From: Escherichia coli
Lineage (GTDB): Bacteria > Pseudomonadota > Gammaproteobacteria > Enterobacterales > Enterobacteriaceae
Reading direction: 5' to 3' (one strand)
Length of the DNA: 64,000 nt
NCBI RefSeq assembly: GCF_003334335.1
Contig: NZ_QOWQ01000023.1
The position numbers were made by a program. Shown here in pieces: positions 32,701-38,700 of the stretch. The first letter of the stretch is position 1; the number at the start of each line of letters is the position of its first letter.

Positions 32701-35700
32701 TAGGGTACAGCACGATGAATCTGTTAGAGGCGCAATAGTGACAGATTTGATTATCAATTCCTATTTTGTTCTAAGGATAAAACCTTAGGTTGTGATCATC
32801 CGCACAATCCCTTAGTAACGCCAGCGGTCATAACGCTGATATTTCGGCACTTTTGGTGCTTTAATCGCCTTAATAACCCACACCACCGCAATCGCCAGTA
32901 GTAACCACGGCAGCAACTTAATCATCAATGCCAGCATACCGCCGAGGAACATAATGGCCGTCGCCACAACCAGCGCGGCGATAATGCCCAGCAACGAAAC
33001 GCCGGTGACCATCAGCATGACAAAAAAGCCAATCACAAAAAGTAGTTCCAGCATGATGCTCTCCCAAATATGAAATCTCTTGCTGGCATTACAAGAATCA
33101 TGCCAAAAATAATCTATTGATTTAACAGCAAAACGCCCCGCGACGGTGCGCAGGGCGTGGTGAATTTGACTACTTTTTGGTGAAAAGTTAACGCTTATCC
33201 GCCACCAGTTTGAGCGCGTGTTCCAGCACATTAATGTCTGCACCCGCTTTATGGGCATTTTCACTTAAATAACGCCGCCACTGCCGCGCGCCAGGAATAC
33301 CCTGGAACAAGCCCAACATATGCCGGGTAATATGGCCGAGATACGTCCCCTGGCTGAGTTCACGCTCAATGTACGGATACATGGCGCGCACTACCGCCAC
33401 CGGATCGGCATCGGTATCCGAGGAACCAAAGATCTCCCGGTCTACCGCCGCCAGAATACCCGGATTCTGATACGCCTCGCGCCCGACCATCACGCCATCC
33501 ATATGTTGCAGGTGTGCTTTGGCCTCTTCCAGCGACTTGATACCACCGTTAATCGACATTGTCAGATGCGGAAAGTCACGCTTCAGTTGATACACACGCG
33601 GATAATCGAGCGGCGGGATTTCACGGTTTTCTTTCGGGCTTAACCCCGAAAGCCAGGCTTTACGTGCGTGGATGATGAACATCTCACACTCGCCTTTGCC
33701 GGAAACGGTATTGATGAAATCGCAGAGAAATTCATAGCTGTCCTGGTCGTCGATGCCAATACGCGTTTTCACCGTCACCGGAATCGACACCACATCGCGC
33801 ATCGCTTTCACGCAGTCGGCAACCAGCTGCGCATTACCCATCAGACACGCACCAAACATGCCGTTCTGCACCCGGTCAGACGGGCAGCCGACATTCAGGT
33901 TGATCTCATCATATCCGCGCGCTTCTGCCAGCTTTGCACACTGCGCCAGCGCCGCCGGATCGCTACCGCCCAGTTGCAACGCTACCGGATGTTCTTCTTC
34001 ACTGTACGCCAGATAATCACCTTTACCGTGAATAATCGCCCCTGTGGTCACCATTTCGGTATACAGCAACGTATTGCGGGAAAGCAGACGCAAGAAATAG
34101 CGGCAATGTCTGTCCGTCCAGTCGAGCATTGGTGCAACGCTAAACCGACCACTCCAGTGAACGTCAGTTTTTTCAGGCATTGCGCTGGTTTGGTTGATTT
34201 TTTGCATTTCAGAATTACCGTGCATTTTCAAATGTAGAGATTATTTTATCGATATATCATGGGGTTATGTTATTCAGCATCACTATTCAGGAGGCTCAAT
34301 AGCGGGGTACTATACCATAACAACAGGAAGCGCCTGTCTCATTGCAAAAGAAAATTGAGATCCTCTCAAGGCATGAAGCTCTCACGAAGTGATGGAAATA
34401 ATCTTATTAGCCGTTAACTTTGTTAAGGCCAATGATAAACAATCCAGGTTCGACGATAAATAAAAAATCACACATTAAACTCTGGTGATATATCTCCCTG
34501 CTAATAGCATTGATAGAGAAAAAAGAACCCAATAAATATTGGGTCCTTTTATATAATGCCTTCCATACTATCGAAGAACTTCACATATTATTTCTCCGAT
34601 TTAACCCCGAACAAATCATAAATTAATTTAGAAGTGTCTGTAAGTATTTTAATCTCTTCCTTTGAGGTTGGGTCAAACGACTTCGCGAAGCTAATTAATT
34701 GTGGTGCAGCATCTCGCATTTTGCTTAAAATATCAGGATCGAGCGTTCCTTCATTCACCAGATGTGACATCTTATCCAGATAGCCATCAAAATTCATTTC
34801 TCCCCCATCAGCCAGACGCTTCATCTCTCCCAGGTACTTCTTCATATCACGTTGAGATAATTTTTCAAACTGAGCTTTCAGGTAGCTCTCATTATTTTCA
34901 TTAATATACACTGTTTCTGATAAATCTGCGTAGGCACTAGAATATGAAAGTGAAATTAACAGCGAAGCAAATAATTTTAAGCTGTTGTCATCATGTTCCT
35001 GGCAGGCATTAACAAACGTTAAAAAACCAGAACCTATTGCTTGAAAATGTATATTCGCTAAAGGTTCATTATCCTTAGATTCCTCATAAAATAGCTGAAC
35101 CGTGGAGGGAAGGTCATTCTTAGTTTCTACATCAAAAGTACATTGTTCAATGGGCATTGCATCTTTATTATCCCCAGGATTACATATACTATTAATCGCG
35201 AAATGAAAAATAGCCCGGTCAACAACTGATGCAATAAAGTCACGATCGTTTAAATCCTCATCAGTGCAATCGTCAATATACTTATTGACCCACATTTTGA
35301 GATCATTTATTTGCACAATTAAAAACACATTTTTTTACGTGCATGCCATAAATTATGCGTGATTCGTTGAATAAACAAATCTATTTTTGCAATAATTATA
35401 TCCCGATGACGCAGCGCTGCATAATCAATAGATTTACCATATATATTATTTAATTTACCTTTGATTGAACCTCTATTATCTAATTTATCTTTGATTGCAT
35501 CTTCATTATCGAATTGATTTGAATTGAGTGTTTTATTAAAGTATCCAGTTGCACCGGGTATTATCTTCAACATGATTCATCTACCTTTTTTGTCGTACCG
35601 TGTCCTCCTTATAATTCTTTTGCCATCTGGTCACTATCAAAAATCGCTCATAATTTCTGAACTACAGGTATGCGTTTAAACCCAGTTAAATAAATAGCGA

Positions 35701-38700
35701 GTTAACTTGAAGCAATTTATTTAAAAATGAATTATTAATTATTATCGTGTTGATAATGGTACGACAAGGCAACATAACACCTTACCTACAAAACAGAAAA
35801 TCAACATTACGGCAACAATAAGGGTTCTCGGTGTTTTTCCTGGAACATGGTAAAGTAAGGACATTCTTAACCCCCACTTTGAGGTGCCCGATGGAAAAGA
35901 CCACAACGCAGGAGTTATTAGCGCAGGCTGAAAAAATCTGCGCGCAGCGTAATGTGCGCCTGACCCCACAGCGCCTGGAAGTGTTGCGCCTGATGAGTCT
36001 GCAGGATGGCGCTATCAGCGCTTATGATCTGCTTGATTTACTGCGCGAAGCTGAACCGCAAGCCAAGCCGCCAACGGTTTATCGCGCGCTGGATTTTCTG
36101 CTTGAGCAAGGTTTTGTGCATAAGGTGGAATCCACCAACAGTTATGTGCTCTGTCATCTGTTCGATCAGCCCACCCATACGTCAGCCATGTTTATTTGCG
36201 ATCGCTGCGGCGCAGTGAAAGAAGAGTGTGCAGAAGGCGTGGAAGACATTATGCATACGCTGGCGGCAAAAATGGGGTTTGCCCTGCGGCATAATGTGAT
36301 TGAAGCACATGGGCTCTGTGCGGCATGTGTAGAAGTGGAAGCGTGTCGTCATCCTGAACAGTGCCAGCATGATCACTCTGTGCAGGTGAAAAAGAAACCG
36401 CGTTAAGAGGGCGTACATCCTTGTACACGTCGGGCAGGAGGGATTAATTACCAGCGATATTCATTGCGGGTTTCCCAATCCACGACCTCTTTTTCTGCCT
36501 GATCTTTCTGATAACCATAACGTTCCTGGATTTTACCGACCAGTTGATCACGTTTACCTTCAATGATCGTCATATCATCATCGGTCAGTTTGCCCCATTG
36601 CTCTTTCACTTTACCTTTAAACTGTTTCCAGTTACCGCCGGCTTCATCTTTATTCATAATCAAGACCTCATCGTTAGGTTGTGAATGAGAGTACGTTCAC
36701 TTTTCTTCTGAACGTGAGATTAAGTGTAGTCAGCAATTTGGCTTAGGATTATTTATTCAGAATTTTTAACCGTCACGTTGCGGCAAACCAGGTACCATTG
36801 CGCCAGTGACGCCGCCAGATAGCCGCCAGAGAAAGCCCGCGCAACGCCAGAAAGACGGTTAATGCCAGCCACAAAGCATGATTACCCAGCCACGGCAGCG
36901 TAAGGAGCGTCAGCGCAAAACCTGCGGCGGCCACCGCCATACTGTTACGCATTTCGGTGGCACGCGTTGCGCCTATAAACATGCCGTCCAGCAGATAACA
37001 CCAGACGCCAACCACCGGCAAAATCACCTGCCAGATAAGATAGCGGTCAGCCAGCTGCTGAATCTGGGTTAACGACGTCAGTAACGCAATGATGTGTTCC
37101 CCAGCCAGCAAATAAACCACCGAAAACAGTAACGCTACGATCCCCGACTGGCGGCACGCTGCCCGCCAGACATCCAGCAACTGGCTACCGTCGCGCGCAC
37201 CGTATGCCTGACCGGAGTGCGCTTCAACCGCGTAGGCAAAACCATCCAGCGCATAGGCGGTAAAGGTGAGTAGCGTCATCAGAACCGCGTTAACAGCGAT
37301 AATGTCACTCCCCAGTCGCGCGCCAAGTACGGTGATCGCGCCGAAACAGAGTTGCAACAACAGCGAACGCAGCATGATATCGCGGTTAAGCGCCAGCAAG
37401 CGACGGAAGTTTCCTCGCCAGGCAGTTTTCAGCATTTCGCCGGAAATTCCGCGTAGTTTGAGGATTTTACGCACCATTAGCAGACCAATCAGCAATGTTG
37501 CATATTCCGCAATAACCGTCGCCAGCGCCGCGCCCTGCACGTTCATATGCAGCCCCATCACCAGCCAGACATCCAGCACAATGTTGAGGATATTGCCGAC
37601 CACTAACAAAATTACTGGCGCACGGGCATATTGCACGCCGAGTAACCAACCGAGTAATACCAGATTCGCCAGCGACGCCGGTGCGCTTAACCAGCGGATT
37701 TCAAGAAAGCGCCGCGCCTGTTCCAGGACTGCCTCACTACCGCCAACAATATGCAGCGCCAGATCGATAATCGGCGTACGCAGCAGCGCAATTAACGCCC
37801 CAGCCCCCAACGCCAACAGCAACGGTTGCACCAGCGTACGGGCTAATGCCTGAGGATTTTTGGCACCATAAGCCTGCGCAGTCAGCCCGGTGGTGCTCAT
37901 GCGTAAAAACAGCAACAGCATAAAGAGAAAGCTGGTCGCCGTTGCACCAACCGCCACGCCGCCCAAATAAACCGGGCTATCAAGATGACCAATTACCGCC
38001 GTATCGACCAGTCCCAGCAACGGAACGGTGATATTGGAGAAAATCATGGGTAAGGCGAGATGCCAGAGTGCTTTATCAGATGAAGTGAGGAATGCCATGC
38101 AGACAAGCCTGATGAAGAGAGATGAAAAACAAACCGCGACGCCAGGCGGCATCGCGGTCTCAGAGATATGTTACAGCCAGTCGCCGTTGCGAATAACCCC
38201 AACCGCCAGCCCTTCAATGGTGAAGCTCTGCTGACGAAGGTCAACGACAATTGGTTTAAACTCGCTATTTTCTGGCAACAGTTCGACTTTATTGCCCTGT
38301 TTTTTCAGGCGCTTAACGGTAACTTCGTCATCAATACGTGCGACAACGACCTGACCGTTACGTACATCCTGAGTTTTATGCACTGCCAGCAAGTCACCAT
38401 CCATAATGCCGATATCTTTCATCGACATCCCGCTGACGCGCAGCAGGAAATCAGCATTCGGCTTGAATAAGGAAGGATCGACCTGATAATGACCTTCAAT
38501 ATGCTGTTGCGCCAGAAGTGGTTCACCGGCAGCCACACGACCTACCAGCGGCAACCCTTCTTCCTCTTCCTGCAACAGACGAATCCCGCGTGATGCGCCG
38601 GAAACAATTTCAATAACGCCTTTGCGTGCCAGCGCCTTCAGATGTTCTTCAGCCGCGTTTGGGGAACGGAACCCCAAACGCTGCGCGATTTCCGCACGCG

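Follow-up and report, generated by a model that had tools for sequence, protein, structure and literature searches.

Contingency loci of Neisseria, Haemophilus and Campylobacter carry within an open reading frame (ORF) a homopolymer whose length sets the frame, and ON and OFF lengths of the tract coexist. The E. coli type III secretion system 2 (ETT2) island of Escherichia coli displays repeated 'mutational attrition' and is absent from B2 strains. Its decayed K-12 genes ygeF, ygeK, ygeN and ygeO, which are annotated as pseudogenes, belong to AT-rich, acquired, H-NS-silenced DNA. Type II toxin-antitoxin modules and two-gene defence systems present a small ORF and then a larger one in foreign DNA. 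The yjbL-yjbM locus of E. coli is compared here with these systems as it occurs in a stretch of 64,000 nucleotides (assembly GCF_003334335.1, contig NZ_QOWQ01000023.1), hereafter the window, where it lies in an AT-rich islet between dusA and zur. All intact alleles in RefSeq carry the name of one family, DUF2713 (Pfam PF10897; 'DUF2713 family protein' in the Prokaryotic Genome Annotation Pipeline, PGAP), to which no function is attached. The locus is given as a two-gene, 'young' operon of unknown function in a 2025 paper (PMC12218254), and a first-pass annotation of the window read it as a two-gene cassette of toxin-antitoxin or defence type. The interpretation preferred here, with a probability of about 0.85, is that the K-12 locus holds an acquired accessory gene, covered by H-NS, that has recently become a pseudogene, and that its two ORFs are one split gene.

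The window displays the gene order dnaB-qor-pspG-dusA-yjbL-yjbM-zur-yjbJ-dinF-lexA, as in E. coli K-12. Over the dusA-to-zur segment one non-coding base, at 34508, is all that separates it from MG1655, and the YjbL and YjbM that it encodes are identical to MG1655 b4047 and b4048. The two co-oriented ORFs of the first-pass annotation, of 84 and 235 residues, are present on the minus strand and are separated by 23 bp from the yjbL stop to the yjbM ATG, while the yjbM frame stays open upstream to a GTG at 35328 (246 residues from there). The islet region was searched by megablast against 5,426 complete E. coli genomes, and at the yjbL-yjbM site other E. coli strains carry a single annotated 'DUF2713 family protein' of 318–340 residues. 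Single ORFs that align over the whole span of yjbL plus yjbM are found in 11 sampled alleles (L002, L003, L006, L008, L010, L011, L014–L016, L018 and L019). Nucleotide alignment and six-frame translation match YjbL residues 1–80 with the N-terminus of the intact protein, and the YjbM frame picks up the same protein gap-free, a homopolymer being the sole discontinuity. In the intact close alleles (L006, L008, L014, L015 and L019) this tract reads CGT-AAAAAAAA-TGTG (A8) and encodes ...HARKKNVFLI..., whereas the tract of the window, CGT-AAAAAAA-TGTG, is one A shorter. The A8 to A7 loss shifts the frame after Lys-80 of the 328-codon reconstruction, and the tail of YjbL accordingly reads MCF in place of NVF. 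Resetting the tract to A8 produces an uninterrupted 328-codon ORF in the window, without further lesion, and likewise complete ORFs in L004, L005, L009, L012 and L017. The tract change is probably the only lesion of the K-12 locus, and these alignments show that yjbL and yjbM are two pieces of one DUF2713 gene of about 328 codons. The identical DNA of strain VE-F10 is called by PGAP one 'frameshifted' DUF2713 pseudogene with exactly the extent of the gene in Table 1, while the curated MG1655 record still holds two coding sequences.

Table 1 Features of the yjbL-yjbM locus and of the adjoining dusA 5' end, in window positions unless another numbering is named.
Feature	Position	Strand	Description or basis
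AT-rich islet between dusA and zur	34324..35786	.	about 1.46 kb, GC 0.344; alignment to islet-less junctions
DUF2713-family gene, frameshifted ('yjbL' + 'yjbM')	34588..35573	-	986 nt; A8 version 987 nt, 328 codons
yjbL ORF, 84 aa	35573->35319	-	ancestral N-terminal 80 residues and a 4-residue out-of-frame tail, then stop
yjbM ORF, 235 aa from ATG	35295->34588	-	C-terminal about 75% of the ancestral protein
Homopolymer A7, frameshift site (A8 in intact close alleles)	35330..35336	-	allele comparison
30-bp tandem repeat, 2.4 copies	35445..35515	-	10-aa unit D-A-x-K-D-K-L-D-N-x; Tandem Repeats Finder and protein alignment
Sigma-70 promoter TTGTCG-18-AATAAT	35767->35738	-	promoter scan and genomic SELEX literature
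Intrinsic-terminator-like hairpin	34521..34550	-	13 pairs, loop of 4, T run; 38 nt past the stop codon
dusA stub	290–394 of L006, L009, L013, L017, L018; window equivalent about 34122–34225		

A genuine two-gene operon (a toxin-antitoxin module, a defence pair or similar), in which a basic protein of 84 residues and an acidic one of 235 would cooperate, is extremely improbable. About 1,600 genomes keep both ORFs open, their products have opposite charges (isoelectric point 9.8 for YjbL and 4.48 for YjbM, the latter acidic as first described), and both the curated MG1655 record and the 2025 paper (PMC12218254) have two genes or an operon. Against this, every intact allele has one ORF that runs collinear with the pair, YjbL ends in four out-of-frame residues, and the split arose independently on other haplotypes, alongside other inactivating lesions; moreover yjbM lacks a Shine-Dalgarno motif and its reported abundance is negligible (PMC9841429). 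Neither product matches a toxin-antitoxin or defence family. Scans of both ORFs in Pfam, NCBIfam and PADLOC find no toxin, antitoxin or defence domain, with no NCBIfam match for either protein and zero PADLOC-DB v2 families at E ≤ 1, distant relatives lying outside the latter scan. The toxin-antitoxin or defence reading falls because the small-plus-larger layout, its only basis, is a frameshift artefact. The earlier statement that neither protein carries a recognisable motif holds for YjbL, which has no Pfam match because it forms the N-terminus of the protein to which YjbM also belongs, and fails for YjbM, whose residues 1–235 of 235 align with positions 1–235 of the DUF2713 model (E 1.7e-167). 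Transmembrane segments are absent from both proteins, as first noted (maximum 19-residue Kyte-Doolittle score 1.39). YjbL has also been cited as a response regulator (PMC12871917), and no Pfam or NCBIfam domain supports that identity.

The gene possesses its own sigma-70 promoter and terminator. The hexamers matched by the promoter scan are those of the constitutive yjbLM promoter reported from genomic SELEX (systematic evolution of ligands by exponential enrichment; PMC3946193), and the zur/yjbL spacer, within which this promoter falls, is an H-NS-bound 'promoter island' (PMC3661553). The non-coding flanks of the ORF pair measure 356 bp and 317 bp and include the 3' hairpin, in agreement with the first description, and this hairpin is kept in divergent alleles (alignment columns about 1210–1250). 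The sole Rfam match, to the Acinetobacter small RNA AbsR28 (34504–34557, minus strand), was rejected as a chance hit, as its 23.6 bits lie below the gathering score of 50 and it coincides with the terminator hairpin. In the proposed sequence of events the gene would be transcribed from its own promoter; in K-12-type alleles the ribosomes that start at the yjbL AUG would halt four codons past the A7 tract, releasing an 84-residue fragment at most, and the 235–246 downstream codons, which have no ribosome-binding site, would be essentially untranslated. A published table lists yjbM as an AUGUG-start gene without a Shine-Dalgarno motif and with an abundance of 0.002 parts per million (PMC9841429), which is consistent with a downstream fragment that is not translated by itself. 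The frameshift followed by an unread downstream frame would thus make the K-12 locus a young pseudogene.

The same tract could instead be recoded, either by a -1 slip of tRNA-Lys on AAA-AAA-A or by an extra A added by RNA polymerase, such that some 328-residue protein is still produced. This is very unlikely. A-runs and tRNA-Lys are slippery in E. coli, and a -1 shift or one additional A at the tract gives ...RKKNVFLI..., exactly the intact sequence. However, the RNA downstream is devoid of a stimulatory fold (z = -1.44; of 200 shuffles, 20 fold equally well), the sequence ahead of the tract shows no internal Shine-Dalgarno-like element, and the phase at the tract differs from the canonical X-XXY-YYZ heptamer. 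Similarly, seven A residues are below the length usually required for efficient transcriptional slippage, and the two-frame layout is not conserved, close and distant relatives being single-frame. The negligible abundance of the YjbM frame (PMC9841429) also argues against recoding.

Inactivation of the gene has occurred repeatedly across E. coli, through A7 and A9 tracts, other frameshifts, a 5-bp deletion and insertion sequence (IS) elements. Tract states were taken from 19 sampled alleles, together with protein cluster sizes. An A8 tract is found in every intact allele of the K-12-like class whose tract is uninterrupted (the five close alleles named above), an A7 tract accompanies a frameshifted gene in the window and in L004, L005, L007, L012, L013 and L017, and the A9 tract of L009 is also frameshifted. 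The tract is interrupted, yet the gene intact, in L010, L011, L016 and L018 (G-A7), L002 (ATC-A5) and L003 (GATAATAA). Local haplotypes were defined by single-nucleotide polymorphisms within 150–200 nt of the tract. The window-type A7 and the A9 of L009 share one such haplotype, while the A7 of L017 stands on a different one, and its import from the K-12 type would require a recombination tract of about 50 bp. The post-tract ORFs of 248 residues (MFLIEQ...) form protein clusters of 647 members (L017-type) and of 186 and 18 members (a further haplotype, with the intact counterpart P0116), so that sequencing error is excluded for the main A7 cases. Across these haplotypes, A7 stands on at least three backgrounds. 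Further lesions comprise a second frameshift in L007, the 5-bp deletion in L013 and a truncation at KKYLER in a protein cluster of 277 members. In addition, IS1, IS5 or IS200C lies within the 1.6-kb islet region (homologue of window 34232–35830) in 4 of 29 evenly spaced genomes (H1, H15, H17 and H25).

Natural tract variants exist in and out of frame (A8 in frame; A7 and A9 out), as expected of a phase-variable contingency gene in which slipped-strand mispairing would alternate ON (A8) and OFF (A7, A9) states and the K-12 allele would be a reversible OFF form. This explanation, which is unlikely, accommodates the coexistence of A7, A8 and A9, the presence of A7 and A9 on one local haplotype and of A7 on at least three haplotypes, and the observation that OFF alleles are mostly without other lesion. 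Possible frame restorers occur among K-12-type proteins, where RKNVF corresponds to A5 and RKKCVLI to A6 plus T4, the in-frame 30-bp repeat also changes copy number, and hypervariability, a frequent trait of contingency loci, is seen in this gene as well. On the other hand, in E. coli with functional mismatch repair eight A residues make a short run for efficient phase variation. Three intact allele classes have an interrupted tract, so that it is not conserved as a switch, irreversible lesions (IS elements, the 5-bp deletion, other frameshifts) are common, and the sampled complete genomes include no A8 tract on exactly the K-12 haplotype. The frame restorers, moreover, are singletons and could be homopolymer sequencing errors.

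Where the gene is intact, its alleles experience weak purifying selection, recombine heavily and belong to classes extraordinarily divergent for one species. Pairwise ratios of non-synonymous to synonymous substitution rates (dN/dS) among repaired or intact alleles range from 0.24 to 0.98 and are mostly 0.3–0.55, so the sequence is genuinely coding and weakly constrained; the ratio is higher, 0.7–1.0, when the window is compared with its closest relatives, which differ by few substitutions. Among the three deep classes (K-12-like, L002-like and L003-like) the synonymous divergence (dS) reaches 0.49–0.85 and protein identity is 48–52%. Such dS values greatly exceed what is usual within a species. 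The 5' leader and the terminator, meanwhile, hardly differ from one deep class to another. The K-12-like class is itself a mosaic, with 18.7% of site pairs failing the four-gamete test and a Hudson-Kaplan minimum number of recombination events (Rm) of at least 12 over about 1 kb. The 30-bp repeat near the N-terminus is present in one, two or three copies depending on the allele, in frame every time.

The Pfam DUF2713 model covers the YjbM-sized part only, and the real protein extends 80–105 residues further at the N-terminus, in the YjbL part. AlphaFold gives a medium-quality model for the repaired protein (predicted local distance difference test score, pLDDT, 60.9; predicted template modelling score, pTM, 0.55), with residues 1–60 disordered, a confident helical bundle at residues 182–322 and a poorly supported three-stranded sheet. 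The intact product is probably an acidic, soluble accessory protein whose N-terminus is disordered and carries the repeat and whose C-terminal half is helical. No sequence relative was found in the PDB, and three fold searches returned self-family matches only, Foldseek against AFDB50 being significant solely for DUF2713 entries. The profile and structure searches proposed with the first-pass annotation reveal no housekeeping homology, DUF2713 being the sole family, and leave the gene without an assignable function, as that annotation had it; DUF2713 is likewise not mentioned in the literature searched. A profile search of 5.8 billion proteins gave 143 matches, all of them E. coli DUF2713 save one partial 'Klebsiella' entry, while an exhaustive hidden Markov model search of 1.84 billion representatives gave 55 matches, mostly fragments of the same gene. 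The full-size distant relatives are P0145 (397 residues, E 2e-14), P0146 (313 residues, 4e-14), P0151 (426 residues, 6e-12), P0152 (336 residues, 9e-12), P0163 (408 residues, 4e-8) and three proteins of about 303 residues (1e-5 to 1e-4). Seven distant relatives scanned against NCBIfam match no family. A peptide-pattern scan of one genome per species, with narrow patterns and an E. coli representative that is apparently islet-less, found no DUF2713 relative.

The gene for P0145, on a 6.3-kb metagenome contig, has as neighbours (L104:3842–4777) one for a pentapeptide-repeat protein with a weak match to SopD, a Salmonella effector, and a KfrA-type (KfrA_N) plasmid gene. The gene for P0146, on a 5-kb contig, has as neighbours (L105:2620–5023) an IS transposase, a hok (Hok/Gef) toxin gene and an AIDA-type adhesin gene. 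These two short contigs hint at mobile or virulence-type surroundings of the distant relatives, no more.

The intact gene could encode a virulence-type accessory protein, that is, a type III secretion substrate or a factor of interaction with host or competitor, which decays where it is useless; this is a doubtful proposal, drawn from sequence features. The N-terminal stretch of about 60 residues is polar, rich in Ser, Asn and Thr and predicted to be disordered, with no acidic residue among the first 20. The deep allele classes, mosaic recombination and repeat-number variation, the repeated attrition combined with absence from B2, resembling ETT2, and the neighbours of P0145 and P0146 all agree with such a role. 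However, neither homology nor fold similarity to a known type III effector family was found, the neighbourhoods are those of only two short contigs, and ygeH, the marker of ETT2, is present in 3,561 genomes against 4,044–4,303 for the islet. Co-distribution with ETT2 was set aside on these grounds, as genome counts differ and phylogroup confounds the overlap; it is a lead only. A further proposal makes DUF2713 a contingency-type, hypervariable protein of new fold at the interface with host, phage or competitor, possibly secreted or associated with virulence, whose classes would be kept by balancing or diversifying selection and whose A-tract would be a switch, with K-12 in a reversible OFF state; it is quite unlikely. 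Overall, the pattern of variation and the contexts of the relatives suggest an accessory function of interaction or conflict type, dispensable in many lineages, and do not point to a housekeeping, toxin-antitoxin or known defence activity.

The islet is foreign DNA inserted between housekeeping genes in the non-B2 part of E. coli, in line with the first-pass annotation. Its left boundary was set by aligning the islet-less junctions of HH97 and EC958, while the right boundary is approximate, the homology of HH97 picking up again at about 35787. The GC content of the islet, and likewise of its ORFs, is 0.344 compared with 0.537 in dusA, 0.521 in zur and 0.508 over the whole window, so the AT-richness first described is borne out. 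The full islet is present in 4,044 of the 5,426 complete genomes and a partial or full match in 4,303, whereas the islet flanks are matched by all 5,426, about 1,120 of them only at 90–95% identity. These approximately 1,120 genomes carry a B2-like junction without the islet; in the two that were inspected, EC958 (sequence type 131) and PM06121, dusA and zur are 146 bp apart with nothing between. Similarly, the gap measures 145–149 bp in E. albertii, E. whittamii and representatives of three further Escherichia species. The islet is thus not universal at this junction, and since the gap is about 146 bp both in B2-like strains and in other Escherichia, it was inserted within E. coli after the B2-like split. 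The HH97-type 'empty site' was rejected as the common presence/absence state, being found in only 2 of 5,426 genomes; the B2-like junction is the common islet-less state. A simple target-site duplication was also considered, as the 7-bp CATAACA stands at both islet ends, and was not accepted, since the right copy is not continued by empty-site sequence.

The neighbouring dusA 5' end is itself unusual. The first 29 or so codons of K-12-type dusA and the proximal upstream region (34122–34290) are unalignable to the dusA of B2, E. albertii and E. whittamii. Homology of K-12-type dusA to B2 and outgroup dusA is lost upstream of 34137, and positions 34290–34323 are alignable again to the B2 spacer. 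Present-day elements split dusA at 34122, 15 bp from the point at which homology starts. This suggests that the dusA 5' end was replaced earlier by a dusA-targeting element, possibly tied to the arrival of the islet; the renewed alignment at 34290–34323 and the lack of an integrase in the window do not favour this. In 5 of 19 sampled strains a 105-bp 5' dusA stub ('tRNA-dihydrouridine synthase, incomplete') lies beside the islet and is followed by foreign DNA, and therefore an integrative element or prophage has inserted into the dusA 5' end of these strains. 'yjbM' has been given as an insertion site of Shiga toxin phages (PMC8065619), which agrees with the dusA stubs. Both ORFs match PHROG 'phage' families, 29005 and 28007, with very strong E-values and no assigned function, while a tblastn search of phages (INPHARED) found no record encoding the protein; the two families probably stem from prophage predictions that ran past the dusA integration site. 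Among plasmids, the matches comprise megabase-scale, chromosome-like records and one 17-kb Klebsiella record, and offer no evidence of mobility. In other Enterobacteriaceae (L028–L099) the dusA-zur gap holds 0.7–3.5 kb of unrelated genes of normal GC content, among them those for a cupin protein and a TraF-like outer-membrane protein, with an integrase in L048. HigB/HigA-like pairs, unrelated to the DUF2713 gene, occupy the junction in L048, L093, L084 and L071. The unrelated genes in other genera indicate that the junction is generally plastic, and the genus Escherichia has lost the junction genes that other genera carry.

Several points weigh against the reading of the K-12 locus as a young pseudogene. 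Non-function in K-12 is argued from sequence logic and one abundance value in the literature, and the K-12-type A7 allele is free of a second lesion despite about 1,600 genomes at ≥99% identity, a state that is also compatible with reversible switching, recoding at a low level or some residual function of the fragments. In an MG1655 line evolved on lactate, yjbM acquired an M47I change that gave by itself a reported growth-rate recovery of about 1% (PMC2784333). This fitness effect is small and uncertain, and is odd for a fragment of a pseudogene. The proportions of intact and disrupted copies (about 11 intact, 14 frameshifted and 4 with IS elements) come from 29 evenly sampled islet-bearing genomes, 7 of the 14 frameshifted copies being assigned by ≥99.6% identity to K-12. 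The singleton variants (A9 in L009 and the A5 and A6 plus T4 restorers) could be sequencing errors, and the lack of a structural relative is weak evidence for the N-terminal half of a protein modelled at pLDDT 61.

As an object the locus is ordinary: an accessory gene of a foreign islet, frameshifted at a homopolymer and already flagged by an annotation pipeline. Less ordinary are the repeated occurrence of one lesion, the great depth of the mosaic allele classes and an apparently fold-orphan protein confined to part of one species. b4047 and b4048, counted as two in the MG1655 reference and in the literature (PMC12218254), are better treated as one frameshifted gene, and the knock-out, proteome-chip and phylostratigraphy data on them are to be reread in this way. 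The intact gene offers a tidy case of a species-restricted orphan with deep mosaic classes and repeated inactivation at one homopolymer, and a single-base repair in K-12 makes decay, switching and conflict-driven selection testable against each other. The locus reveals no new defence or toxin-antitoxin system.

The likeness to type II toxin-antitoxin and two-gene defence modules is superficial: where toxin-antitoxin modules have two genes, the 11 intact alleles have a single ORF of which yjbL and yjbM are the collinear halves. With the contingency loci of Neisseria, Haemophilus and Campylobacter the gene shares a homopolymer within the ORF whose ON and OFF lengths coexist, as well as hypervariability and a variable in-frame repeat, and differs from them in that its tract is short (8), missing in three allele classes and accompanied by frequent irreversible lesions. 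The decayed ETT2 genes of K-12 provide a similar case of AT-rich, acquired, H-NS-bound DNA inactivated by strain-specific small lesions and IS elements. In contrast to these genes, the yjbL-yjbM gene is listed as two intact genes in the MG1655 reference and has changed at the same tract independently several times, and its intact alleles, with dS up to 0.85, are far more divergent than those of ordinary E. coli genes.

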